Of a stretch of DNA of 64,000 bases, positions 5,028 to 31,568 are shown in pieces. The position numbers and the translations under genes are program-made. The stretch lies in NCBI RefSeq assembly GCF_056746865.1, contig NZ_CM163382.1; one strand, given 5' to 3'. Positions within the stretch are counted from its first letter, which is position 1; every line of letters starts with the position of its first letter. Below the pieces are notes generated by a model that had not been told where the DNA came from, did no database searches, and saw only the letters and a program-made list of their open reading frames with translations.

Positions 5028-5079
5028 AACTTCAGGCAGGTTACAATAGTTTCCAGTAAGTATTCTGGAGGCTGCATCC

Positions 5080-10647: not shown

Positions 10648-10723
10648 GCCGATATAGCTCAGTTGGTAGAGCAGCGCATTCGTAATGCGAAGGTCGGAGG
10701 TTCGACTCCTCTTATCGGCACCA
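10648..10723 (+). tRNA. thrW: tRNA-Thr (anticodon CGT)
   Basis: 76 nt cloverleaf: acceptor GCCGATA/TATCGGC, D-arm GCTC/GAGC, anticodon loop TTCGTAA, T-arm GGAGG/CCTCT, 3' CCA. Confidence 0.95.
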
Positions 10724-10850: not shown

Positions 10851-11090
10851 TTAAGCCAATTGCTGCCGCCATTCCTTGACGTGGTCAATCAGGGCGCGGA
10901 GCTTTGGTGCAATATTGCGACGCTGTGGGAAATACAGATAGAAGCCCGGAAATTGTGGAAGAAAGTCATCAAGCAGCGATACAAGCTTACCGCTTTCAAT
11001 ATATGGCCTGAAAGTTTCCTGAGTGGCAATTGTTATGCCTGCGCCGGCAAGAGCCAGCCTCAACATCAGACGCAGATCATTCTGCTAATC
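10851..11090 (-). pseudogene. 3' remnant of a LysR-family regulator gene
   Basis: 71 aa ORF resembling only the C-terminal region of the other LysR proteins in this window (GKL..L..F.P.FPGFYLY); in-frame stop upstream, no N-terminal HTH. Confidence 0.5.
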
Positions 11091-11165
11091 CCACCGATGC
11101 TTCGGTCTGGAGTGGTAAATTAATATTGGACACAGTTTTATTTTCTCTCTTTTTCGAGGGCTATA

Positions 11166-11434
11166 TGAACAGGAAGAATACATCCCTAAGCGGTTAATGC
11201 TGGCGTAATCAATAGACCAGCATTAATCACGGATGATTACCAATCAGACAGATATGGTTAAATCGTCGAATTCATAATTAATACTTTTTCTTACGCCGCT
11301 GAACAGCTTGAAAAGGATACATATTTTAAATATCAGTGAAGTGAACAGTTTATTGCCGTTATTAATAGAGATGGAGGAATAAATACGCGTATTCTACTAT
11401 TGCAACAAAAACAACGATGATGATCAGTTTTCAT
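11166..11434 (-). repeat. degenerate paralogous copy of the ykgO-3'-end/terminator and ykgR region (compare 31042-31195 and 31875-31993)
   Basis: two blocks of roughly 80-85 percent identity by eye; contains a remnant of the last ~12 ykgO codons and a frameshifted ykgR-like 33-codon ORF; ykgM and most of ykgO are missing. Confidence 0.6.
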
Positions 11435-11641
11435 AATGAAGTAACCTGACAGATATAAAAATGTTGATTGAGGCTCAATGCCCGGATGAAGGTTGTCGAG
11501 GGAGCCAGGTGGTTTTTTCTTTTGGGTGATCTCCATTGCTGGATAGTCCCCTCTTTCTCGCTCAAAGCAGACCCTGGAATTGAACGCAGAGGGACTACCT
11601 GACACAATTTTGCACAGTGAAGAGTCGGTCGTTATTAACGT

Positions 11642-12526
11642 TCAGATTTTCAATGTATCAATGACCATCCGCAGGGCGGGGGAGACGTTGCGATGAGGGT
11701 AATAGAGAAACAATCCCTCCATTCGCAGGCTGTAACGCTGCAACACCCTGATAAGCTTACCGTGTTCTAAATCATCCGCGACCAGTTCAACAGGAACATA
11801 GGCCAATCCGAGGCCCAGCCGGGCTGCTTCTGCTTCCATATAGCTGTCGGATAAGGCCCATTGCCCTTCAGGGCGATGAGTGATTTTTTTATCATCCTGA
11901 TTGAGTTCCCACTGGTATACGCTGCCGTCGGCAAACTGATAGGCGATACAGGGATGCGCCTTTAAATCCGCCGGGGTTTGCGGAAAACCATAGCGACGAA
12001 AATGTTCCGGAGTCCCCACAATTGCCATCTCCATATCGGGCGTGATGCGTACCGCGACCATACCCTGGCCGACTTCAGGCCCCAGGCGGACACCTGCATC
12101 GAATCTTTCCTCGATGATATCGACGAACCGGCTCTCATTTATCAGTTCAAGCCGGATATCAGGATATCGCTGTTTAAATACCGCCAGCTTTGGCAGCAGG
12201 CATTTATCAATCGCGTGCTGGCTGGCATTGATACGCACCGTGCCGGAGGGCGTCTCTCGATAGTGCGCCAGCGTGGCAAGCCCAAGATCTAACATTTCAA
12301 ATCCAGATGCCGTCTTCTGGTAGAGCTGCTCGCCTGCTTGTGTCAGCGACAGTTTACGCGTGGTGCGCACTAGCAGCTGGACGCCGAGCCTTTCTTCAAG
12401 CTCGCGAACAGAACGGCTGACTCCTGACTGAGCAAGACCCAGCCGCTGAGCCGCTGCGGTAAAGCTGCCTTCCCGCACCACCTGCATAAACAGGTACAGC
12501 TCGTTGTAGTTCTCCCTTTTCGCCAT
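11642..12526 (-). CDS. LysR-family transcriptional regulator
   Basis: 294 aa; N-terminal HTH (FTAAAQRLGLAQSGVSRSVRELE) and LysR substrate-binding domain; divergent from the hydrolase gene. Confidence 0.88.
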   Translation of the reverse strand: MAKRENYNELYLFMQVVREGSFTAAAQRLGLAQSGVSRSVRELEERLGVQLLVRTTRKLSLTQAGEQLYQKTASGFEMLDLGLATLAHYRETPSGTVRINASQHAIDKCLLPKLAVFKQRYPDIRLELINESRFVDIIEERFDAGVRLGPEVGQGMVAVRITPDMEMAIVGTPEHFRRYGFPQTPADLKAHPCIAYQFADGSVYQWELNQDDKKITHRPEGQWALSDSYMEAEAARLGLGLAYVPVELVADDLEHGKLIRVLQRYSLRMEGLFLYYPHRNVSPALRMVIDTLKI

Positions 12527-12712
12527 TGAAACATCCCCCCTTCATGCCGGCAATCTCCGCATTAATTTATAACAATATGGTATTAATCTTAGCATTAATC
12601 GCCCCCTAATCAGCACTAATTCTGCTCATTATAATGACCCCATCAAAGCAAAGCACCGCAGCGTTTTCCGTCGGAAACCTGTATCTCTCTATTGTTTTTT
12701 ATGGGGATTTTT

Positions 12713-13849
12713 ATGAAAGCCTTCACCCGAACGCTAAAAACCGCGATGCCGACCATGCTGCTTTTCGCATCATTAAGTGGAGTCACGACAATGAGTTATG
12801 CTGATTCAACCAATCCTAATGCCCCTGTGTCCATGACAGATAAATGGGATAAAACGTTCGCCGAGAGCCAGAAAGTCGATCACCGTAAAGTCTCGTTCCC
12901 GAACCGATATGGCATCACCTTAGTGGGCGATCTTTACCTGCCTAAAGACCGTGGCGATCGCAAGCTGGCGGCGATTGCGGTCAGTGGGCCATTTGGCGCG
13001 GTGAAAGAGCAATCCAGCGGCTTGTATGCGCAGACGCTGGCGGAACGAGGGTTTGTTACCCTGGCGTTCGATCCTTCTTACACCGGGGAAAGCGGCGGCT
13101 ATCCGCGAAACGTCGCCTCACCGGATATCAACACTGAAGATTTCAGCGCGGCGGTGGATTTCTTAGGGCTGCAAAAAGAGGTAGATCGCAACCGTATCGG
13201 GCTGCTCGGTATTTGTGGCTGGGGCGGCATGGCGCTGAACGACGTGGCGATGGATACCCGCGTTAAAGCGGTAGCTACCAGCGTGATGTATGACATGAGC
13301 CGGGCGATGGGTCATGGTGTGGGGGATGGCAAAGACCGTTATTCTACCGCCGACCGTCGTGCCGTTCTGCAATATCTGAATGAACAGCGCTGGCAGGATG
13401 CGCAGAGCGGAACGTTCGCTCACGGTGGTCATGATATTAATGTCGATAGCAACGGCAAGGTCAGTGCGGGCGAGCGCATTCTGCCAGAAACGCTGCCGGC
13501 AAATCCTCATCCGGTACTGAAAGAGTTCTTTGACTACTATCGCATGCCGCGCGGCTTCCACGAACGTTCCGTTAACTCTACCGGGGCGTGGACGGCAACG
13601 ATGCCGCTGTCATTTATGAATATGCCGCTGTTGAGCTACGCCAGTGAAATCACCATTCCGACGCTGATTGTGACCGGTGAGAAAGCACATTCACGCTATT
13701 TTGCTGAAGATGCTTACAAGGCGGTTGGCAGTAAAGACAAAGAGTTGGTGGTGGTACCAGGGGCAAATCACGTGGACCTGTACGATAACGTGGCCGGAAA
13801 AATACCTTTCGCGAAGTTCGAACAATTTTTCCAGACCAAACTGAAATAA
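12713..13849 (+). CDS. secreted alpha/beta-fold hydrolase, dienelactone-hydrolase-like (Cys in the nucleophile elbow)
   Basis: 378 aa from ATG 12713; signal-peptide-like N-terminus; GICGWGG elbow; paralog of the 33884-34804 product. Confidence 0.8.
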   Translation: MKAFTRTLKTAMPTMLLFASLSGVTTMSYADSTNPNAPVSMTDKWDKTFAESQKVDHRKVSFPNRYGITLVGDLYLPKDRGDRKLAAIAVSGPFGAVKEQSSGLYAQTLAERGFVTLAFDPSYTGESGGYPRNVASPDINTEDFSAAVDFLGLQKEVDRNRIGLLGICGWGGMALNDVAMDTRVKAVATSVMYDMSRAMGHGVGDGKDRYSTADRRAVLQYLNEQRWQDAQSGTFAHGGHDINVDSNGKVSAGERILPETLPANPHPVLKEFFDYYRMPRGFHERSVNSTGAWTATMPLSFMNMPLLSYASEITIPTLIVTGEKAHSRYFAEDAYKAVGSKDKELVVVPGANHVDLYDNVAGKIPFAKFEQFFQTKLK

Positions 13850-13870
13850 AACCTCTCCTGAATTGATGCA

Positions 13871-13900
13871 AAGCCACCGGCCATAGGCTGGTGGCTTTTA
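13871..13900 (+). terminator. terminator-like hairpin after the hydrolase gene
   Basis: aagccaccgg...ctggtggctt followed by ttat. Confidence 0.45.
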
Positions 13901-13924
13901 TCCTGATCTTTGTGAAATTTCACT

Positions 13925-15118
13925 ATGTCGACACTAAGCCAAACACTATCACCTCATCATCAGCGCGCATACTGGGGCGGTATTTTTGCCATGACCCTGT
14001 GCGTGTTTGTGCTGATTGCTTCTGAATTTATGCCCGTCAGCCTGCTCACGCCGATTACCCGCGATTTAGGCGTGACGGAGGGGCTTGCAGGGCAGGGGAT
14101 TGCTATCTCCGGCGCGCAGGCGGTTCTGACCAGCCTGACGCTTTCAACGCTAGCTGGAAAGATGAATCGTAAGTTCCTGCTGCTGGGGATGACGGTTCTG
14201 ATGGCCGTATCGGGGCTTATTATTGCGCTGGCTTCCAGTTATCTGATGTATATGGTCGGTCGTGCGATGATTGGTGTGGCTATTGGCGGATTCTGGTCGA
14301 TGTCAGCGGCAACGGCGATTCGTCTGGTGCCGCAGCATCAGGTCACGCGTGCGCTGGCAATTTTCAACGCCGGTAATGCGCTGGCGACGGTCGTGGCCGC
14401 ACCGCTGGGAAGCTATCTGGGGGCTACGGTCGGATGGCGAGGCGCTTTCTTGTGCCTGGTGCCCATCGCGGTTGTCGCCTTTATCTGGCAGTGCATCAGC
14501 CTGCCAAGCATGGATGCGAATAAAAGCCACACTTCATGTGGCGCGGTATTCCGCTTATTTAGCCGCCGCATGGTTGTGGTCGGCATGATAGCTTGTGGCC
14601 TGTTTTTCATGGGGCAGTTTGCGCTATTCACCTATGTGCGCCCGTTTCTGGAGTCGGTGACACGGGTTAATTCCTTAGGCTTGTCGTCGATTTTGCTGAT
14701 TATCGGCGTGGCCGGTTTTATTGGCACGCTGGTTGTTTCGGCATTTCTCAACAGAAAATTCTACCCCACGCTGATGGCCATACCCGGACTGATGGCCGTC
14801 ATTGCCATCGGTCTGATGCTTACCGGGCATCACGTCTGGACGGTCTCGCTGCTGTTAGGACTCTGGGGCATGCTGGCCACCGCCGCGCCAACCGGATGGT
14901 GGACATGGATTGCGCGTACGTTGCCTGACAACGCCGAAGCTGGAGGCGGGCTCATGGTCGCGGTGATTCAGCTCGCCATCGCCCTTGGATCAACGGCAGG
15001 AGGCATTGTGTTTGACCGCCTTGGCTGGCAGAGCACGTTTGCTATGAGTAGCGTGCTGCTCCTTTGCGCTGGCGTACTGACCTTTGTTACCGCACGCCAG
15101 AAGGCCGGTGCGCTTTAG
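13925..15118 (+). CDS. MFS-family transporter
   Basis: 397 aa, multiple hydrophobic helices, MFS-like pattern. Confidence 0.85.
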   Translation: MSTLSQTLSPHHQRAYWGGIFAMTLCVFVLIASEFMPVSLLTPITRDLGVTEGLAGQGIAISGAQAVLTSLTLSTLAGKMNRKFLLLGMTVLMAVSGLIIALASSYLMYMVGRAMIGVAIGGFWSMSAATAIRLVPQHQVTRALAIFNAGNALATVVAAPLGSYLGATVGWRGAFLCLVPIAVVAFIWQCISLPSMDANKSHTSCGAVFRLFSRRMVVVGMIACGLFFMGQFALFTYVRPFLESVTRVNSLGLSSILLIIGVAGFIGTLVVSAFLNRKFYPTLMAIPGLMAVIAIGLMLTGHHVWTVSLLLGLWGMLATAAPTGWWTWIARTLPDNAEAGGGLMVAVIQLAIALGSTAGGIVFDRLGWQSTFAMSSVLLLCAGVLTFVTARQKAGAL

Positions 15119-15162
15119 TCCGGCGAGGGCGCGCGTTGCTGAATAAGTTACACAAGGCGATG

Positions 15163-15192
15163 AGCGCCCACTATGGGTTGGGCGCTCTTTTA
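15163..15192 (+). terminator. terminator hairpin between convergent MFS gene and paoD
   Basis: 8 bp stem agcgccca/tgggcgct followed by cttttaaa. Confidence 0.5.
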
Positions 15193-15298
15193 AACGATTT
15201 AGGTGATTTTCTAAAACGGCTACTGCAGATTTTTTCTCTTAATTTATGGGTATTTCCCCCGGAGGCGAGAAAGCGCTCTCCACGCCCGGCCGCAAGGA

Positions 15299-16255
15299 TC
15301 AGGACGACGGGGGCAGGCATGAATCCTCATCCTGATGGAGACGTACAGAGGCGACTTCTGCCAGCACGGAGAGTGCCAGAGTATGCGCATCCCGGGCTTT
15401 GGGGAATATCCCGACGGGTGCCCGGATTTGCGCTGTCTCCTCCCTGGACCATCCCAGCTCGTGGAGCTTTTGCAGACGTAAAGTGTGGGTTCGATAGCTG
15501 CCCAATGCGCCGAGATAAAAGGGTTTTGCTTCTCGCGCGGCCTGCAACACTGGCAGCTCCCGGTTGAGATCATGGCACAGCAAAATGACCGCCGTATCGG
15601 TATCGATCTGAGCGCTGGCTGAGGCCGGAAAAAGATCGAAGATATGGCTGTCATAGCCTGTGGCTGCTGCAAGACTCGCGGTTGCCTGCGCCTCAAGAGA
15701 ACGTCCGTAAATCATCAGACTGACGCATGGCCTGAACCCCACCTCAAAGCCATTGAGATTCCAGCCCGTCCGGGTTTGCGTGGGCAGGCACACCAGCGAT
15801 TGAGCTTGCGGATCGTAGCGCAGACCCGCCGGTTTTCTCTGTTCCAGGCGGTTCAGCACGGCGAGCAGAGGCTGTGCCGAGCGTAGTTTATGGAGCGTCA
15901 GCGTGATCCCACCGCCGCAGGGCAGAACGATGTCAAACCACGGCGAACCTTCGCCATAGCAAATTTCGCGATCGCGGCCTGAGCCCATCACCTCCAGCGC
16001 TTCAAAAGCGGCAGCGGCCTCCACGCAGCCGCCAGAGACAAAACCGCAGTAACGGCCATCTTCGCGCACCACCATCTGCGCCCCGAGCGGGCGCGCCGCG
16101 CCGCCGCGTATCTCCACCAGCGTCACCAGCACCGCTCCTTTACCGGACATTAGCGCCTCTACGGCGAAGCGCAGAATGGTCCGGTGGTCATCGGTGAGAA
16201 ACGCCTGCTCTGGCTTATGCCAGTGCTCGTCTTTGTCAAAAAGCGAGTATGACAT
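15299..16255 (-). CDS. paoD: molybdenum cofactor insertion chaperone (XdhC family) PaoD
   Basis: 318 aa; last gene of the pao cluster. Confidence 0.88.
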   Translation of the reverse strand: MSYSLFDKDEHWHKPEQAFLTDDHRTILRFAVEALMSGKGAVLVTLVEIRGGAARPLGAQMVVREDGRYCGFVSGGCVEAAAAFEALEVMGSGRDREICYGEGSPWFDIVLPCGGGITLTLHKLRSAQPLLAVLNRLEQRKPAGLRYDPQAQSLVCLPTQTRTGWNLNGFEVGFRPCVSLMIYGRSLEAQATASLAAATGYDSHIFDLFPASASAQIDTDTAVILLCHDLNRELPVLQAAREAKPFYLGALGSYRTHTLRLQKLHELGWSREETAQIRAPVGIFPKARDAHTLALSVLAEVASVRLHQDEDSCLPPSS

Positions 16256-16264
16256 TGTTCCTCC

Positions 16265-18463
16265 TTAAACCACATCCGGCAGTTTATCGAGCAGCTTATC
16301 CAGAGTGATGGGATAATCCCGTACCCGAATACCGGTGGCGTTATACACCGCGTTGGCGATAGCCGCGCTCACGCCGCACAGGCCCAGCTCACCGACACCT
16401 TTGGCCTTCATCGGGGAGGAGATGGGGTCGGTATCATCCAGGAAAATCACCTCCTGTTTTGGGATATCCGCATGAACCGGCACCTCATACCCCGCCATAT
16501 CGTGATTAACGAAGTAGCCCAAACGGTCATCCACCGCCAGCTCCTCCATCAGTGCCGCGCCCATGCCCATAGTCATTGCGCCAATGACCTGGCTGCGTGC
16601 GGTTTTCGGATTCAGGATGCGTACTGCAGCACACACAGCGAGCATACGCCGGACCCGAACTTCTCCCGTCGCGCTATGCACGCCGACCTCCACAAAATGC
16701 CCGGCAAAGGTCGATTGCTGGTACTCCTTGCTCAGTGTTCCGAATTCAATGCTCTCTTCCGCTGTCAGCCTGCCGCCTGCGGTGGCCTCATGTAGCGTGG
16801 CGCTTCGGGTACCGTTGGTAATCTTGCCGTCGGCAAACTGCGACTGCCCAGGATCAAACCCGACTGCCGAGGCAATCATTTCGCGAAGTTTCACACAGGC
16901 GGCGTAAACGCCGGAGGTGGAGGTATTCGCGCCCCATTGTCCACCAGAACCCGCAGAAACCGGGAAACTGGAATCGCCGAGGTGAACCGCAACCTGCTCC
17001 AGCGGTACGCCAAGCATTTCCGCTGCCGTCTGAGCCAGAATTGTGTAGCTGCCGGTGCCAATATCGGTCATGTCCGTTTCCACGGTAACGGTGCCGTTTT
17101 GTTCTAGGTGAACCCGAGCACCCGATTTTTCCAGCAGATTATTGCGAAAGCCCGCCGCAACACCGTGGCCGACTAGCCACTCCCCGTCGCGTACCTGTCC
17201 GGGTGTGGCGTTGCGCTGCTTCCAGCCAAATTTATCCGCTCCGGTGCGCAAGCACTCAATAAGCTGACGGCGAGAGAAGCGGCGCGTCGGGTCGGCGGGG
17301 TCAACCTGAGTGTCATTCAGGATGCGAAACTCGACGGGATCGATGCCTGCTTTTTCCGCCAGTTCATCGATCGCGATTTCGAGCGCCATCAGACCGGGGG
17401 CTTCGCCGGGCGCACGCATGGCGTTCCCTTCCGGCAAATCAAGCGTGGCGAGCCGCAGGCCGGTATGACGATTCGCCCCTGCGTAGAGTAATTCGCTTTG
17501 CTGTACCGCCGTTTCCGGCGTGCCGCCGGGCAGGTTTCCGGACCAGCTTTCATGTGAGATAGCAGTGATTTTCCCGCTCTGGTCGGCACCGATACGCAGG
17601 TGCTGAAGGGTGGCGGGGCGGTGCGTTGTGTTATTGGGAATAGTGGGGCGGGGGAGCATCACTTTAACCGGACGTTTCACCGCACGGGCGGCGAGGGCCG
17701 CCAGCAGCGCATCGCTTCTCAGGAACAGCTTGCCGCCAAACCCTCCGCCGATATACGGGGAGATAATACGCACATTCTCCACGGGCACTTTCAGCGTTTT
17801 TGCCAGATCGGTGCGGCACCAGTCAATCATCTGATTTGAGGTCCAGAGGGTAAGCTTATTTCCATCCCAGACGGCCATCGAGGCATGCGGCTCCATCGCC
17901 ATATGGCTCTGGTCCGGGGTCGTGTAGGTAGCATCAATCTTCACCGCAGCGGAGGTGAAAGCCCCGTCAAAGTCACCAACATTTTTATCGGGCGTGTCTT
18001 CCGGCGGCTGACTGACGGCCTGTTTCTCGTCCGCCAGGGAGTAAGCTCCTTTATTACGGCGATAGTGCGCCTGCACCAGCGAGGCCGCCGCTCGTGCCTG
18101 TTCGAAGGTCTCGGCCACTACCAGCGCAATGGCCTGATGATAGTGCTCAATAGTGGGGCCGGCTAACAGCCTGGCGGTGTTTTTGTCGCCTTTGCCGAGT
18201 GCCCCGGCGTTACTGGCGGTAATGACAGCCAGTACGCCCGGCGCTTTTTGCGCGGCGTCCGTATCAAGGGCGGTGAGGCATCCTTTGGCAATGGCGGAAC
18301 CGACGATATAACCATAGGCGGCGTTGGGAGCTTCTTCATACCATTCGTAGGCGTAGCGTGCCGTGCCGGTAGTTTTCAGCGGTCCGTCGATGCGGTCATG
18401 GGGACGACCGACAACCTTCAGCTGATCGATCGGGTTTTCCCCTGCGGGTTTATCAAATTTCAT
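16265..18463 (-). CDS. paoC: aldehyde oxidoreductase molybdopterin-binding subunit PaoC
   Basis: 732 aa xanthine-dehydrogenase-family large subunit; start overlaps paoB stop by 4 nt. Confidence 0.92.
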
Positions 18464-19416
18464 GCCTGTGCCCTCGCTTCAGCCAGTACGGAGGCAAGCG
18501 TTCGCTTCGCCAACAGGAGTTTAAAGGTGTTTTCAGCGGTGGGATGGGCGCTGGCGAACAGCGCGTCATACACGGCCTGCGCCCCCTGGGATAGCTGAGC
18601 ATTCGCAGCCTCAATGCGCCAGGGCTTATGTGCTACTCCGCCCAGCGCGACGCGCCCGCTGCCGTCAGGCTGAATAATCGCCGCGACCGATACCAGGGCA
18701 AAGGCGTAGGAGGCGCGATCGCGCACCTTACGGTAAATATGTTTTCCGCCGAGCGGCGGAGGTAACGTCACCGCAACGATAAGCTCACCGGGAAGCAGGG
18801 CGGTTTCAATGTGCGGCGTTTTCCCCGGTGGGTGATAAAAATCAGCCAGTGTGATACTGCGAGTCTTTCCCTCCGGCGTGATGGTTTCCACCACCGCATC
18901 CAGCAACCGCATTGCGACCGCCATATCGCTCGGATGGGTGGCAATGCAGGCTTCGCTTACGCCTACCACCGCGTGCTGACGGCTAAAGCCTTCAAGTGCC
19001 GCGCAGCCGCTCCCGGGCAGGCGCTTATTGCAGGGCTGATTGGTGTCGTAAAAATAGGGGCAGCGCGTGCGCTGGAGCAGATTACCTGCGGTGGTTGCCT
19101 GATTACGTAACTGACCAGACGCGCCAGCGAGCAGGGCGCGGGAGAGTACCGCGTAATCACGACGCACGCGCTCGTGAGCCGCCAGGTCGGTGTTCCGTAC
19201 CAGTGCGCCGATGCGCAGCCCACCCGCGTCGGTCACTTCAATCTTATCGAGCCCGAGGCCGTTCACATCGATAAGGTGGGTGGGCGTTTCAATTTCCAGC
19301 TTCATCAGGTCCAGCAGATTGGTCCCGCCCGCGATAAATTTTGCGCCGGGTACGCGCTGAGCGCTAAGTGCCGCCTCGGCCGGGGTGTTCACTCGTTCAT
19401 AGGTAAACGCCTTCAT
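18460..19416 (-). CDS. paoB: aldehyde oxidoreductase FAD-binding subunit PaoB
   Basis: 318 aa; overlaps the paoA stop. Confidence 0.92.
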
Positions 19417-19903
19417 GATTTTATCTCCCCCGCAGCGTCTTCAATGGCGGCAAGGATGTTAGCGTATGCTCCACAGCGACAGATGTTGCCGCTCATACGT
19501 TCACGGATCTCATCGGCAGTTCTTTCTGGAGGGGAAACCAAATCGACCGTGACGTGACTGGGAATGCCGTCCTGAATCTCTTTTAGCACCGCTACTGATG
19601 AGCAAATTTGCCCGGAGGTGCAGTAGCCGCACTGGAAGCCATCATGCTTGATAAAGGCCGCCTGCATGGGGTGAAGATTCTCTGGTGAACCCAGGCCTTC
19701 AATGGTGGTGATCTCGGCCCCCTGATGCATGACTGCAAGCGTCAGGCAGGCATTAAGCCTGCGACCATTGACCAGCACGGTACAGGCTCCGCACTGTCCG
19801 TGATCGCAACCTTTCTTGGTACCGAACAGATGCAGATTTTCACGCAAAGCGTCCAGTAGCGTGGTTCGGGTATCCACCTCAAGCTGCTCGGTTTTGCCGT
19901 TCA

Positions 19904-21162
<1,259 letters not shown>

Positions 21163-21769
21163 CACCTTAAGTGTCAGGGGCATTATCTCTGGCGCGGGTG
21201 TAGCTGCCGGAACGCTTGCTGCAAGCGTAGAATGAGGATAAACCACGGCGGTCGCCGCCGTTGCGGCGCTGACTTTAATCAGATCGCGACGGGTCAAACT
21301 AAAATCGTGCGGCTCGTGCTTCCCAACCCGATTATCTTCGGGGTATTCGCCTTGGTTGCTCATACCAGGCCTCCGGTATTCTAAAGGGGAAAATAAGAGA
21401 GCGTTGCGAGAGTGCTGATGCTTTTTTAAACGTTAAGCATAGTCGGTGAGAGCAGGAGGATTATTCTTAAAACGCGAATGCAGCTATGAGCCCGGCTAAT
21501 TAATTCATATTCGCCGATGACGGGAGCTCGTTTATTGCTTTAGTTGTGCGATGCAAAAACCGATAAGGAAACCTGTGATTGTCAGCTCTGCATCACCCTA
21601 CAAATCTTTGTCACTTCTAACATAAAAATAGGGAGAAATGATGGTGCTTATATTCATTGGCGATTAGGAAACTATCTTGTTATACAAAACAATACAGTTC
21701 TTTACATTTGTCTTGTTTTATGAATACTCCTGAAGAGGTGTATAACATAATGGTACAAGCAGGGTAGAT

Positions 21770-22384
21770 ATGAATATATTTGAACAAACTCCACCGAACC
21801 GCAGACGTTATGGTCTTGCTGCATTCATTGGGCTGATTGCTGGCGTTGTTTCCGCATTTGTGAAGTGGGGTGCTGAAGTTCCATTGCCGCCACGTAGCCC
21901 GGTGGATATGTTTAATGCAGCGTGTGGCCCGGAATCATTAATCAGGGCTGCTGGGCAAATTGATTGCTCCCGTAATTTTCTCAATCCTCCGTATATTTTT
22001 CTTCGAGACTGGCTAGGGCTGACAGATCCCAATGCGGCTGTTTATACCTTTGCCGGGCATGTCTTTAACTGGGTTGGCGTTACGCACATTATCTTTTCGA
22101 TAGTGTTTGCTGTCGGTTATTGTGTGGTTGCTGAAGTATTTCCAAAAATTAAACTCTGGCAGGGCTTACTGGCAGGTGCTTTAGCCCAACTTTTTGTTCA
22201 TATGATTTCATTCCCTCTCATGGGACTGACGCCACCTCTGTTTGATCTCCCGTGGTATGAGAATGTTTCTGAAATTTTTGGACATTTAGTCTGGTTCTGG
22301 TCCATTGAAATTATTCGCAGAGATTTACGAAACAGAATTACTCATGAGCCAGACCCTGAGATCCCTTTAGGCTCAAACAGATAA
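21770..22384 (+). CDS. yagU: inner membrane protein YagU (DUF1440)
   Basis: 204 aa, hydrophobic; recognised sequence and position. Confidence 0.85.
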
Positions 22385-22397
22385 TGCATTGAATAAT

Positions 22398-22426
22398 AAA
22401 AATGGCGCAAATGCAGCGCCATTTTT
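22398..22426 (+). terminator. rho-independent terminator of yagU
   Basis: aaaaatggcgc-aaatgca-gcgccattttt. Confidence 0.65.
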
Positions 22427-22573
22427 ATAGGTTAAAAACATTGCTTTTTACTTTCTGAAGCAGATAGCCAGTGAGTACATCGCGCTACTTCAGGATGCTG
22501 TAGATCCGGAGAACACTATAGAGGAAGAGGCATTGTTGCTGGCAGATGGAAGAAGTTTCGGGTTTTGTTATCC

Positions 22574-22612
22574 CTGAAAAACGAAGCCCCGCGGTTATAG
22601 CTGGCGGGGCAG
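22574..22612 (-). terminator. terminator-like hairpin downstream of ykgJ
   Basis: gccccgc...gcggggc stem followed on the minus strand by a T-run. Confidence 0.45.
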
Positions 22613-22632
22613 TGCAATTAATTATTGCATAT

Positions 22633-22962
22633 TTATAACGGTGTCAGCCCGTATTTAGCTCTTGCACGATTGCAAGCCTCATTGACGACTCCGTTCTCAC
22701 CAGACATGGCGAATTCTCTGCATGTGGACGATCGATTTTTATATATCGTGCAGCAGGCATTTTTGCCCGGGGTTCCTGCAAGGGCAATACATCGGGGGTT
22801 TTTCTGATTGGTACCGCTCATGCATCGGTGAAAAGGGGATATTTGTTCAGTGAGCCTGGCGGGAATGGTACCGCCAGCATCGTCGGCTTCGGCCCAGTAA
22901 AAAGAGACGCGGAAAAATGCACAACAGGCACCACACGTCATGCATGGATTCAGATTGCTCAT
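22633..22962 (-). CDS. ykgJ: YkgJ-family cysteine-cluster protein
   Basis: 109 aa, multiple Cys ([10 protein letters not shown]...CTIY...C). Confidence 0.8.
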
Positions 22963-23275
22963 AATTCACCAGTACAGCTATAAATCGTAAAGAGAACAGC
23001 GGTACATCGTATGTAAGAACGTACCGCGGTTGGCTGGGGAACTTTCGATAGTGTGAGTATTGAATGATTTCCAGCCGTTACCGATTTTACGTACTAATTC
23101 GTGAATAAACCACTCGTTAGCAGGCTGCCTGGCACCTTTCCGTGTCTCCTGAACACTATGGTGTACATATGAGAAAGCCCATCATTACAGGTGACATTGA
23201 CGATCGCTTCCACATCATTTAAACGATTATTTGAGTCTCTGAGGTGGAATTCTTCCCTCGACCGATGGATAAGTC

Positions 23276-23986
23276 TTAGTCCGCCGAAGGGGGCTTAGCC
23301 GGACAGGAATCGCTAATCTTAATGAATTTGTCGTTATAGACCAGATAATGATTCCCCGGCTGACGTAACTCAGGCTGATGAACCACGTCTCCCGGACGTA
23401 GATACCAGGCATCGCCTTCCTCTTCGGTCGAATCACATCCTGGCTTAATCAGTAGCTTAAACCATGTGTTGCCAGTGTTACTTACCGTTCCTGTCACCTT
23501 GTCGAAGGACCATTTAAACTGAACCTGACGAGGTCGTACTACCAGAATGGTATCCATCACCACCACCGGCTCCGTGCTAACCTCGCCGCCGGTTGGGCTG
23601 CGTCTTGTCTGGTTGCGAGTGGGGACCTCGCGAAATGAGACCCGGTAGTAGCGCTCGCGGTTATCCCGTGGACCATGATAGTAAAATTTAAAATACTCGC
23701 TCTCACCAGCCTGCAACGCCAGCTGGCGGGGGGCGAAAAGCAGTTCACCATCCACCGGTCGGGTGCGCAATTCACTGCTGCCCGGGCTATCGATAGCACT
23801 GATGGCAATACGGTATATCCGTGCGCTTTTGTTGTTATTCACTACACGTTTGCTGACAAAGTCAGTCTCGGACGGCAGCGAAAATGTCAGATTGCCGACC
23901 GAAATCGCCTGTGTCAAAGGTGCCGCCAGCATACAGACCGCTGTCAGCAGGGCCTTAGTTAATGTTACGCCACGTCGCCTGAACAT
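23276..23986 (-). CDS. ecpE: E. coli common pilus chaperone EcpE
   Basis: 236 aa from internal ATG with signal peptide; last gene of the ecp operon; overlaps ecpD end. Confidence 0.82.
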
Positions 23987-25598
23987 GAATCTCTCCTGAA
24001 GCGCTGACTTCGCCAAACCAGCCGTTATCATCTACCGTACGCAGAGAAATGGCGTTATCCATTGGAATCGAAAATTTGACTGTGGTCTTATCCATCTGCC
24101 CCACTTCGCCAGAGATATCAGTCCACGGTGTGGTCAACCACAGCGCATCGGTCATATCCCGCCAGCTATCATCGCACCCGGCATCGTAGGTTTTTGTAGC
24201 TCCGTTGCGGGTAATAAAGGAAAGTGTCGCCGGGAACGGTACTTTCGCCTTACCGTCATCGGAGCTGAAGACACAATAGGAGCGCCCGCCAATCACCTGC
24301 GCGGGTCCGGTCACCTTGATCAGCACTTCGTCGGCAGCTGTTTTACCGCTGGTGGTTACGATATAGCCGAAATCGAGTGCCGACTCGCCGCTGCCAACAT
24401 ATCCCTCCCGCGACGGTGTCTGAGTATATTCATCGGAGATAATACTGATGCTGAAATCACGGGGTTTGATAATCAGCGTGTTGGAGGTAGAAAATTCATA
24501 CCAGCCAGACTCCGGTGATGTGGTGTTCTGAAAGCGAAAGTTGAACAGATCTTTGGTGTTGATATCGCTGATCCCCAGGTTCACCATCTGCTTAAAGAAG
24601 TTGCTCGAGAAGAAAACATAGATCGAGTCTGCGCTCTTCATCTCGTTGAAGGTGTAGTAATAGGCAGTATTGCTCACCGGTTTCCATGAACTGCCATTCA
24701 GACTGAACTGCATATCGTACGCCCCGACGGCCGAGGCTAACGACGAGTTGGCGATCGCCGGGAAGATATGGATTGAGGTGTTGCTGAGTCCGTTTGTTTG
24801 CAGGGTATAGTTAACCATCTTACAACTTAATCCTGAACGGCTGCCGATGGTTTGCGTCCGGCAGTCGGCGTTCCCTTCGCCCAGAGTCGGTACTCCGTCG
24901 CTGTTGATAAACACCTCCGCCAGCGAGTGGGTATTTATCAACCGTAGATTTGCTGCTTTCGTATGGGTGACGTTGCGAACATACCAGTTGCCGGAGGCCT
25001 GATCCTTACAGCGTGCGCCGCTGCTGGCGTCATAGTTCACAGAGGTCTGGCAGGCATTGATGGTCATTGTAAAGCTGCTGCCGACGGGCATTTGTTGCAG
25101 ATACTGGTAAAACGCGTCTGACAACATGCCGTGCATCCACTTCGCGCCGCCGCTGGTCACCGTCGCGCCATAAAATCCACTGGCGTCGGTGGTTTGCGGC
25201 AGGATAAGACTGGTGGTCATATTACACCCTGCGTACCAGTTGATGCAGCGCAAGCCAGTTAAAGGAGATGAAACTGGTGAATTTTCCAGCCACATATCAA
25301 ACTTCCAGTTGGTATAAAGGCCGGTGTTGTAACCGTTATCAATGTAGCCGAGACTTTGCTGATAGATGGTTCCTGAACCATTGTATTTTAAACCGGTCCA
25401 GCGGTTGGCACCGGTCAGGCGCGGATCCAGCGCCCCGCCAGGCGTGACGAAAAAGTTGTCGTCTGAGTTGTTTTCGACAAACACAAACTCGCGTGCCGGA
25501 GCATCCGCCCAGGTTGTTTTGCTCACTGCCGCTCTGAGCGCGGTTGCAGGCCAGATTAGCGCAAAGATTATCATCGCTATCAGTAGGTTAACTCTCAT
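23955..25598 (-). CDS. ecpD: E. coli common pilus tip adhesin EcpD
   Basis: 547 aa with signal peptide; operon position. Confidence 0.88.
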
Positions 25599-28119
25599 TC
25601 TCTTCTCCTGTCTGCGTCACCGCCGCCCACGATGAGAGGCCGCTGCAGACCACATCACCGACCCAGACGGCACCGCGCGCCTGGTTGAGTTCCAGCGCCA
25701 CTTCGCAGGTTTTATTGCCACTGTAGCGAAAATCGATAGTGGGGTATTTCTTATCCACGTCCATGACAAACTCGCCGTTTTCATCGGTTCGAGTTCGGCC
25801 GATATGGTTGTTAATCCGTGCGTTAGCCAGCAGTGTGCCGTCTTCCGCACGGATACGACCGGAGACGGTAACCATCTGCTTCACTTCTGGCTCAATGACA
25901 GCGACATTGCCTGGATAGAGAGTCAGATGACTTTTGCGGCCGCTGACGATATCGTAGCTGTCGAGTGAGTTTTTGCTGTTCTGTAACTCCACCTCATATC
26001 TCCCATAGGGAGAGAGCGGGAGATAGTTACGCTTGCCGTTAAGCGGGAAAATCCGCCCGTTGATTTTGGCGCTGATCTGACCATCGTTCTCCAGGCCAGT
26101 GTCGAATATCACCCCAGCGTTGCCATCGGTCTGCCCGCTGGCAGCGATGTTTTTACCCTGCCAGCCGATGCTGCCGTTGGCGGTCAAATTGGTATTGATG
26201 TAGCCGTCCGCCGCGCTATTGACGTTCAGCGTTCCGCTGGCGTAACGAGCGTCGAACTGTGCATACGCCCCACCGCTGAGGGTTTTGTCATCACCGGTAT
26301 CGCCGGAGATGGCTCGTGACAGATTGGCACCAACAGTGCGAATGGTTCCTTCATCAAACTGTTTGCGTGCTGACAGGTTTGCCATGGTGTAGCCGTTTTG
26401 ATGGGTCATCCCTGCGCTAAACCAGTTGCCCAGTGGTAGCGAGAGATCGAGAGCGATATATTTCCCTGTATTGGCGCTGCTGTCGCCGTTGTTATAGCGC
26501 TGAATACCGGCCCGCAGGCCAAGCGAACCAAAGGTACCGCTGTAGACACTTTGATAGTAATCTGCCGTGTAATAATGGCTGTTGTAGCGGCGGTCATCAT
26601 TGTAGCTGATGCTGAACGTACCCAGCTTCGACCACAGTGAGTTCAGGTTGAGTGTGCCGCCGATTGCACGGTTGTCGGCATCGCTACGTCGCAATTGATT
26701 GCCAATGCGGGTTTTTTCCTGGTTAACCCACAGCGAACTGAAGCCTCCAGGTAGAGTGGCGCTGATGCTGGCGATGTTGCTCCATGAGCTGTCACTGGCC
26801 AGCATGTTTTGCAGGTTAACGTTGATCGCCCCCCCAAGCGGCAGCGTCAGACGGGTTTCACCCACCGCCTGATTATCGTATCCATATCCCGTTGCCGCCC
26901 AGCTAAGCGTACTCAGTGAGCCGGAGGTCGAGGCACCTGCCAGCCAACTCTCTTTAGCTGGTCGCGTCTTTTTCCCGTTTTCCGACCAGCGATCCATATG
27001 AAAGCTACCGCCCCATATCTGCCACGCCAGTGGTGCACCGACGCCGCGCCCCCGGCTAAACAGCTTATTGACCCGTTGAGTGCGTTTGCTGATCACGCGA
27101 CCGTTAACGATGACCTCAACTTCCACATCGTAAATACCGTACGGTAGACCCCGGGTATCCACTTCATGATTGCCCATGGTGAAGTTCTGAACGCTTAGTA
27201 GCCGCCCATCACGGGTGAGATGTACTTCGCCCGCCGCCGGTAAAAAGGCGATCACTGGCGTGGCTGACTGGCTGCTGTCGAAGATGGTGGAGCTGGCCTG
27301 GTTTCCCCAGGAAAGGCCGTAAATCTTCCCTGCTGAAATGGCGGTCATCGGCCCTAAGGACTGCAAGTTCCAGGTATCGAGCATTCCACCGGCAAATCGG
27401 TGACCGGCAAAATCGCGTTCATACATCGCTTTATATAATTCACTGTCCTGTTGACCGCTACCGATCCCGTACAGCGAGCCGTCGAGCACCACGTGATGTT
27501 CGCGCAGTGCAGTAACGTTATTCAGCGACAGATAGCTGGATGTGTTGCTCCCGCCGTTACGCAACTGGTTGTTATAGACGCCGAAGTTATAGCTCAGATT
27601 ACTGCTGAGGGTGTTAACACTGGACTGCCCGATGTCTTCGCTACGTGAGCGTAGTACGGTGCCCAGCGCTTCGCGCTTGACCACCAGCTGCAGCAGCAGT
27701 TGGCGCAAGCTGAGATCCAGCTGCGCGTTGTCAGTCAGGGGGATGGTAAGGGCCTCATTGAACGGGGCGTTCGCCAGAGCCATCAGCTGCTGTCGAGTTT
27801 GTTCGCTGACACTGGCGTTATCTTCACTCTCTTCCAGCTGTATTTTCCGGATGCGTAGCTGTCCATCATCCAGCCAGATAAAAGCGCTGCCGATTCGCTG
27901 ATCGTCCTGGCGCCCCTGGCTACCGGCGAGATGAATATAAAGTGGGACGCTCATGCCGTCCTGAAGCGCCTGACTGAAGGCCTGCGGAATAATCACCCCA
28001 CCTATTTGCTGCGCACTTATGTCAGCAGCGCTGGCATCGGGCTGAACGAACAAAAAGACCATGCCGAAGGCAAACTGGGCTTTCAGTCCTGGGGAGAACC
28101 GTCGTAAAGGCATTGTCAT
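25588..28119 (-). CDS. ecpC: E. coli common pilus usher EcpC
   Basis: 843 aa outer-membrane usher-like protein. Confidence 0.88.
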
Positions 28120-28138
28120 TATCCATCTGCACAGCTAT

Positions 28139-28807
28139 CTATTTCACGGGAATGAACTTATCACCCTGCCAAAGTGCAACCCGTCCTTTGTTATCCGCCG
28201 TGTCCACGCGGGTAAAACGACGCGACTTGCCCGGCATCAGGTAGTAATTCTCTTTACACTCCTTACCATTGGCGGCTTTCAGGCAGGGGCCGTAGGCGAG
28301 GATCCGCAGCGTCGCATTTCCTGTATTTGTCAGGGAGCCGTTGGCGTACTGAAAGTGGTAGTTCGCCTGGCGGGGGGCGACGACCAGAATGGTGCCGATG
28401 CGGGCGGAAGCAGTGGCCACAGCGCTACGGTTGGCATTATCGCGCTGCGCATCACTGAGGGCCTGATCAAACCAGACAATGCGGTAGTAGCGCTCTTTTT
28501 CATCTGCTGGTCCCTTATAGAAGAAGCGGATCACTTCGCTGGCTTGGGCGGGTAGCAGCAAGCTGGCGGGAGTGAGTAGCAACTCATCCGGCTTGTCCAT
28601 TGCGATAACCTGCCCGTCGTCAAGCGGTGAAGAGAGCCGTTCGAGACGGATATTGATGAGGCGGCCACTGTCGGTACTGTTTTGGATCGTTTTGCTCAGC
28701 GTGCTGCTGTCACTGTTCATAAACGATGATATATCGCCGACATCCAGCGCCTGGGCCGGAGATATTCCGGAAAACAGCAGAGCGAGAGGCAGAAGGTGCT
28801 TTTTCAT
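28139..28807 (-). CDS. ecpB: E. coli common pilus chaperone EcpB
   Basis: 222 aa periplasmic chaperone-like protein with signal peptide. Confidence 0.88.
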
Positions 28808-28819
28808 AACAATTCCGTC

Positions 28820-28849
28820 CAGGAATAAAGCAGGGGGGCTACCCCTGCT
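28820..28849 (-). terminator. partial terminator hairpin between ecpA and ecpB
   Basis: 8 bp stem agcagggg/cccctgct in the ecpA-ecpB intergenic region. Confidence 0.45.
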
Positions 28850-28864
28850 GGTACATCAGAGAGA

Positions 28865-29452
28865 TTAACTGGTCCAGGTCGCGTCGAACTGTACGCTAAC
28901 GTCGCCGCTCCAGATGCCTTCCGGTAGAGTGCTGTAATCGGTTACTGCGGTGGTACCATTGGTGGTGCCGCTGATGATGGAGAAAGTGAAACCATCCTGT
29001 GCGGTGGTACGATTGCTGGCATTGTAACCGTTAGCCAGTGGGCTAAGGTTGCCGCCCAGTACGCCGTTGGCGGTATCGATCATCACGGTATCGCCAGTTT
29101 TTTCGACTGCCGCGCCGTTATAATCCACGCCCACATTCAGTGTGGAACCTGAGGTATCCAACTGGGTTAAGGTGTTGGTGATAAGACGTGAGGTCAGTTT
29201 AAAGGCGGTAGCCGTTGAGTCACCCTCGATAGCCACGTCAAATAGACCTTTCTGTGAGTTAAAACCTTTAATGCCTTCGGCATACTGGAACGCCAGGCTA
29301 CCGAGTGGCGTCACAACCAGCTTACTGGTGGTGTCTTTTTTGGCTGTTGCTGACCAGGTCGCTACAGCCTGAGCTGTTACGTCAGCAGCCTGCGCCACAC
29401 CTGAACCGGTAAACACCGTTACCAGAGCTATTGCCAGAACCTTTTTTTTCAT
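28865..29452 (-). CDS. ecpA: E. coli common pilus major pilin EcpA (MatB)
   Basis: 195 aa with signal peptide ([22 protein letters not shown]). Confidence 0.92.
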
Positions 29453-29526
29453 TGCTTTTCTTCCCGAGTTGAATTGAGGACGTGATGTCCCTGTGAGTCA
29501 TTTTTTAAAACTAACTTGCCTGGAGT

Positions 29527-30138
<612 letters not shown>

Positions 30139-30519
30139 TTACAGGTACATTCAGTTTCTTTAGTAAATCGGAAGTAAATAAGATACGTAGCACATATCAA
30201 TATAGGTTAAACGAGATTAAGTTTTAATTATTTTCGATTGGGCTTAAATTTATGTTTTTTTCCTGATGAGTGTCAATATGTGAACAGAAAAGGAATTCCA
30301 TGGTTAAGTCAATATTTACAAAAAATGAAAATATTGCTTTTTTGATAAGAAGAAAAAGACATTCAGTTTCATAAGGTTATTGGCAATATAACGTTCAATT
30401 CTTACTTGCATTTTATATTAGCCAGGAACTTTGCCCTGAGGTGTTAGGAATAGTCTTAATGTGTTGTGTAATGGACTAGTAAAAAAACAAGTTTAAATGA
30501 TAAGAAATAGAATATAAAA

Positions 30520-30747
30520 CTATAATGAGTCATAATTAAAGATGATTTGCCAATCAGTAAAGTGTTTTAATGGATTAACATGCCGCACAAAATGGTTATG
30601 GGTGTTCATTCCAATAAGTGATGAAAAATTAAACAGGTGTAAGTACGTCATCTGTCCGGTAAGCCCCCTAAGAGCCAAATTAAGTGAAGTTAAACGAAGA
30701 CTGCCAGTTGTCACAGGAACGATGGCCTCTTTGCCAGGGCACTGCAT
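30520..30747 (-). CDS. hypothetical 75 aa protein (position and length match ykgL of K-12 from memory)
   Basis: ORF only; no strong RBS or domain signal. Confidence 0.3.
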   Translation of the reverse strand: MQCPGKEAIVPVTTGSLRLTSLNLALRGLTGQMTYLHLFNFSSLIGMNTHNHFVRHVNPLKHFTDWQIIFNYDSL

Positions 30748-31153
30748 TCAGTCATCTGTGCGCGTTACTCTAACTGGCACTCGAACGTCGGCGATGGGGT
30801 TACCGGTGGATCAGGCCGTTCCTGTGGCGTAAACGTTTTTATGTCAGTACCAACAGATTTACCACATTTATCATCTTAACCGTTTGAGTGTAAATGCAGG
30901 CTGCGTCGCAAAGGGAGGAAACTGAGTGGCGTGTTCAGTCTAAAAGAGAGTTGATGCCAGCATACAGGGCGCACCTGGTCAACAAGTCAACATTAATATA
31001 ATGGAATATTCGGAGAGAAACGTCAGGCAGTTGACCTTAAATGAACAGGAAGATACATCCCCAGGAAAATTAATGCTGGTGTAATAAATACACCAACATT
31101 AATCCGGTCTGATTATTAATCAGACAAATATCGTTAATTCGTCGAATTTTGAA

Positions 31154-31294
31154 TCAACGTTTTTTCTTACGACCCTGAACGGCCTTAAAACGTGGATTAG
31201 ATTTACAAATCACATATAGCCGTCCTTTTCGCTTCACAATCTGACAGTCTGGATGGCGTTCTTTTGCGGTACGCAGAGAGTTAAGGACTTTCAT
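31154..31294 (-). CDS. ykgO: 50S ribosomal protein L36 paralog (zinc-independent type)
   Basis: 46 aa [46 protein letters not shown] read directly; absent from the ORF track (<60 aa); start overlaps ykgM stop (ATGA). Confidence 0.85.
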
Positions 31295-31557: not shown

Positions 31558-31568
31558 CATTTTTACCT

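Follow-up and report, generated by a model that had tools for sequence, protein, structure and literature searches.

What is the stretch of about 270 bp that lies beside the tRNA gene thrW and resembles two separated parts of the ykgO-ykgM-ykgR locus 20 kb away, and how did it come to be there? The genes ykgM and ykgO code for L31B and L36B, zinc-independent ribosomal paralogs that are repressed by Zur, and ykgR encodes a membrane protein of 33 aa. The window analyzed here, a stretch of 64,000 nucleotides, matches an E. coli chromosome, and the 401 bp around the segment are 100% identical to E. coli strain 118UI. The original prediction described the segment as a fossil copy of the locus, lacking ykgM, most of ykgO and the spacer, and attributed it to an old segmental duplication followed by decay.

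A BLAST comparison of positions 10700-11700 with the whole window resolves the thrW-side segment into two blocks of homology. Block 1 (11162-11314) matches 31038-31190 with 78.6% identity over 154 columns (E 1e-29), and block 2 (11314-11430) matches 31874-31990 with 90.6% identity over 117 columns (E 1e-41); besides these and the self-match, the search returned three weak matches of 28-34 nt (E 0.001-0.004). MAFFT alignments are concordant with BLAST for both blocks, and the coordinates fall within a few bases of those predicted. MAFFT also pairs the fossil sequence right of 11430 with the 5' end of ykgR, a pairing that we reject as homology: BLAST stops at 11430, and identity beyond it is about 50%. 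The two blocks are collinear, lie on the same strand and abut at a single base, 11314. What the thrW-side copy lacks between them is 31191-31873, a gap of 683 bp that holds codons 1-35 of ykgO, all of ykgM with its promoter and upstream region, and most of the ykgM-ykgR spacer, as the prediction had it. The junction falls within a run of A (a slash marks the joint): the ykgO side reads CTTAAAA/CGTGG, the ykgR side ACAAAAA/GGGAGAGGATGCA and the fossil CTTGAAAA/GGATACA. Matches of this strength, in the same order and on the same strand, make the segment a paralogous relic of this particular locus. The features of the two copies are listed below, with a strand for the genes.

11162..11314: block 1 of the fossil, the ykgO 3' end and downstream hairpin region (BLAST, 78.6% to 31038-31190; alignment)
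11314..11314: junction or deletion scar between blocks 1 and 2, equal to the loss of 31191-31873
11314..11430: block 2 of the fossil, ykgR codons 12-33 and 48 bp downstream of ykgR (BLAST, 90.6%; alignments)
31038..31190: block 1 of the real locus, the ykgO 3' end and terminator hairpins (BLAST; RNA folds)
31154..31294, minus strand: intact ykgO, type B L36 (ORF; PGAP)
31294..31560, minus strand: intact ykgM, type B L31 (ORF; PGAP)
31874..31990: block 2 of the real locus (BLAST)
31922..32023, minus strand: intact ykgR, small membrane protein of 33 aa (ORF; NF041474, 74.9 bits)

Within the segment, little of the coding content is left. The remnants are these:

11194..11226, minus strand: remnant of the ykgO terminator hairpin, with the 10-bp arms 11194-11203 and 11217-11226 kept and the U-tract lost (RNA folds)
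11278..11313, minus strand: ykgO' remnant, the last 11 codons, FQAVQRRKKKY, and the stop (read from the sequence against the C-terminal end of YkgO; unannotated in RefSeq)
11333..11434, minus strand: out-of-frame ATG ORF of 33 codons, MKTDHHRCFCCNSRIRVFIPPSLLITAINCSLH (ORF list; the lower end of a 90-aa ORF, 11333-11605)
11362..11430, minus strand: ykgR' pseudogene, codons 12-33 and the stop (PGAP Eco118UI_RS27410; NF041474, 36.1 bits; translation)

In the true ykgR frame, the fossil preserves codons 12-33 only, reading KLIIIVVFVAIVEYAYLFLHLY followed by the stop; a TGA stands in frame directly upstream at 11431-11433, and the stump has no in-frame ATG, GTG or TTG start. It aligns with NCBIfam NF041474 and Pfam PF28062 at profile positions 12-33 alone, below the cut-off of 40 bits, and thus falls short of a full-length YkgR (a 33-aa ORF with a start and more than 40 bits), which the real ykgR is. 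Neither can the segment encode a type B L36 protein (YkgO, PF00444), with 11 of the 46 ykgO codons left and ykgM absent. The ykgR-like frame of 33 codons had been predicted to be shifted, and this is correct: the ATG ORF at 11333-11434 is ykgR DNA read in the wrong frame, and it bears no similarity to YkgR in its own. Compared with the ykgO-ykgM-ykgR locus, to both ends of which it is homologous in the same order and orientation, the fossil is without ykgM, the promoter region, 35 of 46 ykgO codons, and the ykgR start with the 11 N-terminal codons, and it can therefore yield none of the three products.

The terminator has decayed as well. RNA folding of the real ykgO 3' region yields three hairpins (z -5.8), including a 17-bp stem followed by UUUUCC, which constitutes an intrinsic terminator. 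The fossil retains the main stem, here followed by CCGCUUAGG, and its second hairpin is degraded; its fold as a whole has z -4.0 against shuffles. The arrangement that defines an intrinsic terminator, a hairpin directly before a U-tract, is gone. Scans of 11162-11434 found no terminator-like and no promoter-like site, and Rfam (E <= 1) recognized no RNA family in either copy. Apart from thrW, overlapped by a weak antisense match that is due to chance, it returned only a match to folP, likewise by chance (20 bits against a threshold of 99).

Part of the segment is already annotated. In every fossil-bearing RefSeq genome examined, PGAP labels the ykgR piece 'small membrane protein YkgR, incomplete, missing N-terminus', and its partial pseudogenes in strain 118UI (Eco118UI_RS27410, NZ_CP032515.1) and O157:H7 WS4202 (AO055_RS32805) cover the same 69 bp, 11362-11430 on the minus strand. 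The call covers the ykgR stump alone, and omits ykgO', the terminator remnant, the 683-bp junction and any reference to the locus 20 kb away. Our literature search found no paper on this segment. The suggestion that it had not been described therefore does not hold for the ykgR part, which PGAP calls a pseudogene, but does for the ykgO part, which is unannotated and for which we found no paper. As a kind of sequence the segment is familiar: it is a gene-fragment relic, or recombination scar.

The surroundings of the fossil in the window are as follows:

10648..10723, plus strand: thrW, tRNA-Thr (CGU), anchor of the variable region (ARAGORN; Rfam tRNA, 71 bits)
10851..11081, minus strand: yagP', C-terminal stump of a LysR-type gene (77 codons), left neighbor of the fossil (ORF list; PGAP)
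11642..12526, minus strand: intact LysR-type gene, followed by an alpha/beta hydrolase and an MFS transporter (ORF list, annotation; coordinates and strand are those of the LysR-type gene)

PGAP describes yagP' as 'LysR substrate-binding domain, missing N-terminus', and its homology to K-12 and O157 ends at 11081. The fullest context is that of O157:H7 WS4202, where thrW is followed by a P4-like element, yagP at full length (299 aa), an SDR oxidoreductase, a hypothetical protein of 92 aa, the fossil, the LysR-hydrolase-MFS module, and paoD onward. The hypothetical protein is weakly BhsA-like and has homologs in Escherichia only. The O157 fossil has boundaries and an internal junction identical to those in the window. 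Four different deletion variants of the interval between thrW and the fossil occur in E. coli. The window has lost the 5' part of yagP, the SDR gene and the hypothetical gene, with homology to O157 resuming at 11077. K-12 is without 11082-15243 and hence without the fossil, its yagP' being fused to sequence downstream of paoD. In CE2050-type strains, a P4-like element with reverse transcriptase (RT) and AbiE genes is joined at 11200, inside the hairpin, and the fossil is truncated. We considered a site-specific insertion of this AbiE/P4-like island, and a deletion explains the joint better, because in L099 these AbiE genes are found upstream of an intact series of yagP, SDR gene, hypothetical gene and fossil. 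The fossil is old, since O157:H7, the lineage of the window and L098-type genomes share both it and its junction. Known remnants of the thrW hot spot (the K-12 yagP', the CP4-6 boundary, P4-like satellite prophages) are likewise stumps left in this interval by repeated insertion and deletion. Those are single-copy truncations, whereas the fossil is paired with a paralog at a distance of 20 kb, and other Escherichia lineages carry its intact counterpart.

Between the fossil and the real locus lies a block that has its own history:

11431..31873: block between the copies, 20,443 bp, absent from the single-copy genomes L094-L097, L111 and L112
11431..11554: U1, a unique joint segment of 124 bp leading from ykgR' to the LysR-hydrolase-MFS module, present only in fossil-bearing E. 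coli loci

The gene order in the block is U1, LysR-hydrolase-MFS, paoDCBA, an IS3-family element, yagU, ykgJ, ecpEDCBA-ecpR, ykgL, ykgO, ykgM and the spacer. Among the loci compared, U1 was met in no other context, and no donor was found. The LysR-hydrolase-MFS module (11555-15143) occurs in about 50 other species of Enterobacterales, with 92-93% nucleotide identity in Citrobacter amalonaticus, Kluyvera and Klebsiella spallanzanii, and homology ends at 11555. The possibility that the fossil travels with this module is rejected: none of the 78 module loci from other Enterobacterales is flanked by ykgR, ykgM or ykgO. GC content varies from 37 to 60% along the block, EcpR is 92% identical to a Klebsiella pneumoniae protein, and in other Enterobacteriaceae ykgM-ykgO lie elsewhere, between pdeB and ylaC. 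Judged by its composition and its relatives, the block looks like a horizontally acquired mosaic. The direct repeats at its ends are 20,560 bp apart and share a perfect match of 33 nt in block 2. A search of the literature on the distribution of ecp in other Escherichia species yielded nothing useful.

Several Escherichia genomes have a single copy, in a form that bears on the origin of the fossil. In the haplotype that we call H1, thrW is followed, to the right, by yagP, the SDR gene, the 92-aa hypothetical gene, 80 bp with a fossil-type block 1, and block 2, which runs on into an intact ykgR of 33 aa. The right flank is that of the real locus (window 31990-32254, then 36040 onward). H1 genomes are without window positions 11431-31873; the ykgO'-ykgR junction is in their only copy, which has the same left neighbor as the fossil. 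H1 occurs in a non-coli lineage of Escherichia (L094-96 and L117-124), whose proBA is 94.4% identical to that of the window. The proteins of this lineage are labeled Escherichia sp. KTE114 or 'MULTISPECIES Escherichia'. H1 also occurs in L097, labeled E. fergusonii by NCBI, with a proBA identity to the window of 97.6% against 95.2% for L113-116, and in three complete atypical E. coli, 6EVA, wlxctx60 and GF4-3 (97.4% for 6EVA and 98.0% for GF4-3, the two for which it was measured). Given their E. coli-level divergence, the single-copy state of these three could be secondary or imported. L113-116, which are probable E. fergusonii chromosomes, have proA, thrW, about 310 bp, a 44-bp spacer and an intact ykgR, with no block 1.

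A second single-copy haplotype of the non-coli lineage, H2, ends in block 1, ykgO, ykgM, the spacer and ykgR; its left part consists of thrW, gtr, yagU, an ABC transporter, TetR, a methyltransferase, an esterase and a gene for 207 aa. The 98% identity between H1 and H2 of this lineage extends up to the left edge of block 2 and falls to 81% in block 1. Block 1 has one and the same left boundary (31038-31040) whether its neighbor is ykgL/ecpR, the 92-aa hypothetical gene or the 207-aa gene; therefore, the ykgO terminator marks the edge of a conserved ykgO-ykgM-ykgR unit against the hypervariable region on the thrW side. No two-copy genome was seen in the non-coli lineage, and an intact ancestor of H1, with the hypothetical gene followed by ykgO, ykgM and ykgR and a fossil-type block 1, was not found in the sampled genomes.

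The two blocks give different measures of divergence among these copies (nucleotide identity):

Block 1, fossils against E. coli-level single copies: 92-97%
Block 1, fossils and E. coli-level single copies against non-coli H1: 86-90%
Block 1, fossil/single-copy group against the E. coli real copy: 72-79%
Block 1, fossil/single-copy group against non-coli H2: 73-77%
Block 1, E. coli real copy against non-coli H2: 74-76%
Block 2, E. coli-level single copies against real copies: 95-97%
Block 2, E. coli-level single copies against fossils: 91-94%
Block 2, fossils against real copies: 90-91%
Block 2, all E. coli-group copies against E. fergusonii and the non-coli lineage: 79-88%

Block 1 thus falls into three deep lineages. 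The blocks differ in age, block 1 having diverged by about 21-25% from the real locus and block 2 by about 3% before decay. Derived states at individual sites of block 2 divide the copies further:

Sites T85 and G109: derived in fossils and E. coli-level single copies
Site G91: derived in the real copy only
Sites G23 and C73: derived in E. coli fossils only, and in all of them
Position 64, A: derived in E. coli-level single copies and the real copy

Such informative sites are few, with two grouping the single copies with the fossils and one (position 64) grouping them with the real copy. The junction in non-coli H1, 6EVA and GF4-3 reads ...GAAAAGCAG(G/A)(G/A)A(G/A)AGGA..., and a further deletion of 9 nt at the junction is common to L097 and all E. 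coli fossils. From the junction and the diagnostic sites therefore follows an order of events: the ykgO'-ykgR junction, the 9-nt deletion, the truncation of ykgR, the changes G23 and C73, and the diversification of the E. coli fossils. The single copies carry fossil markers up to position 109 of 117 and have neither G23 and C73 nor the truncation; therefore, a single crossover between the copies of today cannot produce them.

After its truncation the fossil shows no sign of constraint. Relative to the single-copy ykgR of 6EVA, two fossil lineages have 8 nucleotide differences in nonsynonymous and 3 in synonymous codons, whereas five intact ykgR genes have 5 in nonsynonymous and 20 in synonymous ones (Fisher p = 0.006, for a small sample of partly non-independent lineages). 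The ykgR' frame of the O157 fossil reads KPINTVVFVATVEYAYLSLHFY, and the fossils do not show the purifying selection on the hydrophobic C-terminal segment of YkgR. Fossils of different E. coli lineages differ by 4-8%, with indels, which exceeds the divergence of adjacent genes. With its coding capacity lost and its presence variable among strains, we infer that the segment is non-functional relic DNA, the remains of two genes: ykgO', whose terminator is broken, and ykgR', which has lost its first 11 codons.

Could the segment instead have been retained for a function, as a terminator for the convergent hypothetical and LysR-type genes, as a small RNA or as a small protein of 33 codons? The main hairpin stem survives and folds better than shuffled sequence (z -4.0), and an ATG ORF of 33 codons is present. 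The segment also persists: when the 401-bp query was compared with 5,426 complete E. coli genomes, 616 of them contained the full segment, and the number of second places suggests that about 900 carry at least most of it. Nevertheless we consider a function very improbable, since the segment has no Rfam match and no promoter-like or terminator-like site, the U-tract is lost, the shifted ORF results from reading ykgR sequence out of frame, changes in the ykgR frame are mostly nonsynonymous, the divergence between E. coli lineages is above that of adjacent genes, and K-12-type and CE2050-type strains have deleted it wholly or in part. The same survey addresses the idea that the similarity is that of a short dispersed repeat at many loci (REP/BIME, MITE or IS remnant), which the palindromic hairpins of block 1 might suggest and which would have spoken against the locus-specific paralogy of the prediction. 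The 401-bp query finds a median of 1 and a maximum of 4 places per E. coli genome, mostly the true ykgR locus (91.5% over 117 bp), and fossil-bearing E. coli genomes hold two copies, as does the 64-kb window. Moreover, the segment contains recognizable coding sequence of ykgO and ykgR in the right order and orientation. We therefore reject a REP or IS repeat family on copy number, in the window as well as in the 5,426 genomes, and give this reading next to no probability.

Simple copying of the present ykgO locus probably does not account for the relic. On balance, we favor the view that it would be the truncated remnant of an H1-type locus, to which a 20.4-kb block with an intact ykgO-ykgM-ykgR was joined at codon 11/12 of ykgR. 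In the first step, a microhomology deletion at the A-run had removed codons 1-35 of ykgO, ykgM, the promoter and the spacer from H1, leaving ykgR intact; the resulting state survives as the only copy in the three atypical E. coli, L097 and the non-coli lineage. In the ancestor of typical E. coli, the block, from U1 to the intact ykgO-ykgM-ykgR, would then have been joined to an H1 chromosome by a homologous crossover on the side of ykgR and its flank and an illegitimate joint at 11430/11431, in a homology-facilitated illegitimate or Campbell-like additive integration. This would have produced a pair of direct repeats at a distance of 20.56 kb, the old ykgR stump, now redundant, and the new ykgR. 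From then on the stump has evolved free of constraint, and many lineages have deleted part or all of it. The direction of the event would accordingly be an insertion of the 20.4-kb block. The configuration resembles known additive integrations: direct repeats of the anchor flank the insert, a 20.4-kb mosaic block that has the truncated repeat at one end and the complete one at the other; the joint at 11430/11431, which forms one of its ends, is non-homologous; and relatives have a single-copy allele with the same left flank. It is from this end product that the mechanism is read.

The alternative is an intrachromosomal duplication of ykgO-ykgM-ykgR, after which the copy on the thrW side lost the 683 bp and the 5' end of ykgR and decayed, single copies arising later through deletion of the 20.4 kb between the repeats. 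It accounts well for two collinear direct repeats in one chromosome, the 33-nt perfect match in block 2 could support a RecA-mediated deletion, and hybrid genomes have exactly the structure expected, fossil-type on the left and real-type on the right. In block 2, too, the copies of the E. coli group all fall into one cluster, apart from those of E. fergusonii and the other Escherichia lineage. A single event should have given the blocks similar ages, yet block 1 has diverged by 21-25% and block 2 by about 3% before decay. The crossover would have to fall within the last 8 nt of homology, or precede G23 and C73, in at least three lineages. Furthermore, H1 and H2 of the non-coli lineage are alike as far as the left edge of block 2 but much less so in block 1, and the absence of two-copy genomes seen in that lineage also speaks against it. 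We regard duplication as unlikely, if worth keeping in view. The remnant of an H1-type locus is preferred because single-copy alleles in which ykgR is intact have the junction, the type of block 1 and derived sites in common with the fossil; because those alleles cannot be made by a single crossover between the repeats of today; because one insertion is more parsimonious than at least three independent deletions; because the composition of the block is that of a mosaic, and some of its modules also occur in other genera; and because ykgM-ykgO sit at pdeB/ylaC in other Enterobacteriaceae. The original proposal of an old segmental duplication followed by decay thus stands insofar as the segment is old, paralogous and decayed, as its shared junction and codon changes indicate, and fails as a plain copy of the present locus, given the unequal ages of the blocks and the occurrence of the same junction elsewhere in an only copy with an intact ykgR.

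It had also been asked whether any genome keeps an intact second ykgM/ykgO at thrW. None of the sampled genomes does, including the full-length contexts of the O157 type, and exact YkgO was found in 10 distinct contexts, all adjoining ecpR. A 92-aa variant of YkgM in E. coli came up as a candidate second copy; it is carried by an ICE without ykgO or ykgR and is unrelated to the fossil.

The known workings of ykgM, ykgO and ykgR are unaffected by the relic, and its value as a marker is modest. For annotation, the ykgR pseudogene at thrW should become a composite relic (ykgO', terminator and ykgR') linked to the locus 20 kb away. The interval between thrW and ykgR is among the most variable parts of the Escherichia chromosome, and the relic, with its shared junction, 9-nt deletion and diagnostic sites, is a dated marker that orders the assembly of this interval. 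It is a real possibility, though one we hold tentatively, that typical E. coli would owe ykgM/ykgO, ecp and pao to one mosaic block of about 20 kb, added by a single additive recombination to a chromosome already without ykgM/ykgO; the fossil would be the scar of that event, and a few E. coli and another Escherichia lineage would still show the state before the insertion. The two repeats, with their perfect core of 33 nt, are a potential substrate for losing the 20-kb block again, and the order of the markers suggests that ykgMO, ecp and pao move together in a block that can be inserted and deleted and has direct repeats at its ends.

Between thrW and the fossil, the decayed partial ykgO/ykgR copy at 11162-11430, strains differ by deletion. 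K-12 lacks 11082-15243, and its yagP is a C-terminal LysR fragment whose first ~25 codons are supplied by sequence downstream of paoD. In some strains a P4-like element carrying genes for a 1,069-aa reverse transcriptase and AbiEi/AbiEii directly abuts the fossil. This is best explained as a deletion joint, because in comparison locus L099 those genes precede a yagP that is still intact. A short tandem triplication, derived from the ykgO' stump (the last 11 ykgO codons), occurs in one genome only, GF4-3. The features of this region are as follows (bare coordinates refer to the window).

K-12 (L004) 4382-4792: yagP (b0282), 136-aa ORF, compared with 10851-11081 and 15244 onward
11200: joint of the P4-like element with the fossil in some strains, inside the hairpin arm (L003, strain CE2050, 795-6009)
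L112 (E. coli GF4-3) 9335-9375: three tandem copies of the 9-nt unit TGAACAGCT at the junction of block 1 and block 2
11555-15143: LysR-hydrolase-MFS module
~19905-21163: apparent IS3-family element between pao and yagU

The LysR-hydrolase-MFS module has counterparts in Citrobacter amalonaticus, Kluyvera and Klebsiella spallanzanii (92-93% nucleotide identity) and in many further Enterobacterales (70-88%). It looks like a mobile cassette with no obvious mobility genes. In Serratia marcescens UMH3 the module likewise adjoins thrW, but is inverted. The apparent IS3-family element, homologous to an IS in locus L125 (92.7%), explains added length in comparison with K-12. A strong mosaic of GC content shows when 15000-19000 is set against 30000-34000: the GC reaches 58-60% in pao and 51-56% in ecp, and is 37-42% across ecpR-ykgL-ykgOMR and the right flank. 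The E. coli EcpR shares 92% identity with a protein labelled Klebsiella pneumoniae.

The intact ykgO-ykgM-ykgR locus, an extra ykgM and the neighbouring ykgL involve the following features.

K-12 (L004) 19113-19340: ykgL ORF, 75 aa, overlapping the ykgO terminator hairpins
30894-31084: ykgL counterpart in the window, two ORFs of 35 aa and 27 aa
L093 (O157:H7 Vac_07.1) 20500-23320: ISEc8 (IS66 family) between ykgM and ykgR of the real locus, at the equivalent of ~31729 in the window
L084 (E. coli assembly GCA_028559195.1) 5925-6286: extra ykgM, also in NZ_CP075665.1

The C-terminal part of ykgL consists of sequence copied in block 1 of the fossil. Together with the overlap with the terminator hairpins and the split reading frame in the window, this suggests that ykgL is not a real gene.

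Annotation gives the real ykgR of O157:H7 as frameshifted; therefore both ykgR copies are broken in the O157:H7 lineage. A ykgO-ykgM query (31154-31640) finds two places per genome in the O157-type genomes listed, such as H77, H79 and H80, and the extra places total 656. In a single O157 genome that was checked, the other place falls outside 20 kb of the first and is distinct from the ICE copy. That copy, the extra ykgM, is found in only five complete E. coli genomes, and is hosted by an ICE-like element; TraU, TraG_N, DUF1525 and an integrase lie close by. Its nucleotide identity to chromosomal ykgM is 78%; the proteins are nearly identical, and the ICE-borne YkgM displays a 5-aa duplication, TYPYV. 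A Zur-box-like TGTTATGTTATAACA is located upstream; the gene is not accompanied by ykgO, and an IS2 fragment comes next.

In other Enterobacteriaceae (L087-L092), ykgM-ykgO occurs without ykgR, flanked by pdeB (ylaB) or a GntR-aminotransferase gene and by ylaC-maa-hha-tomB. Since ykgM-ykgO resides elsewhere outside Escherichia, its placement near thrW/ecp in Escherichia is derived.
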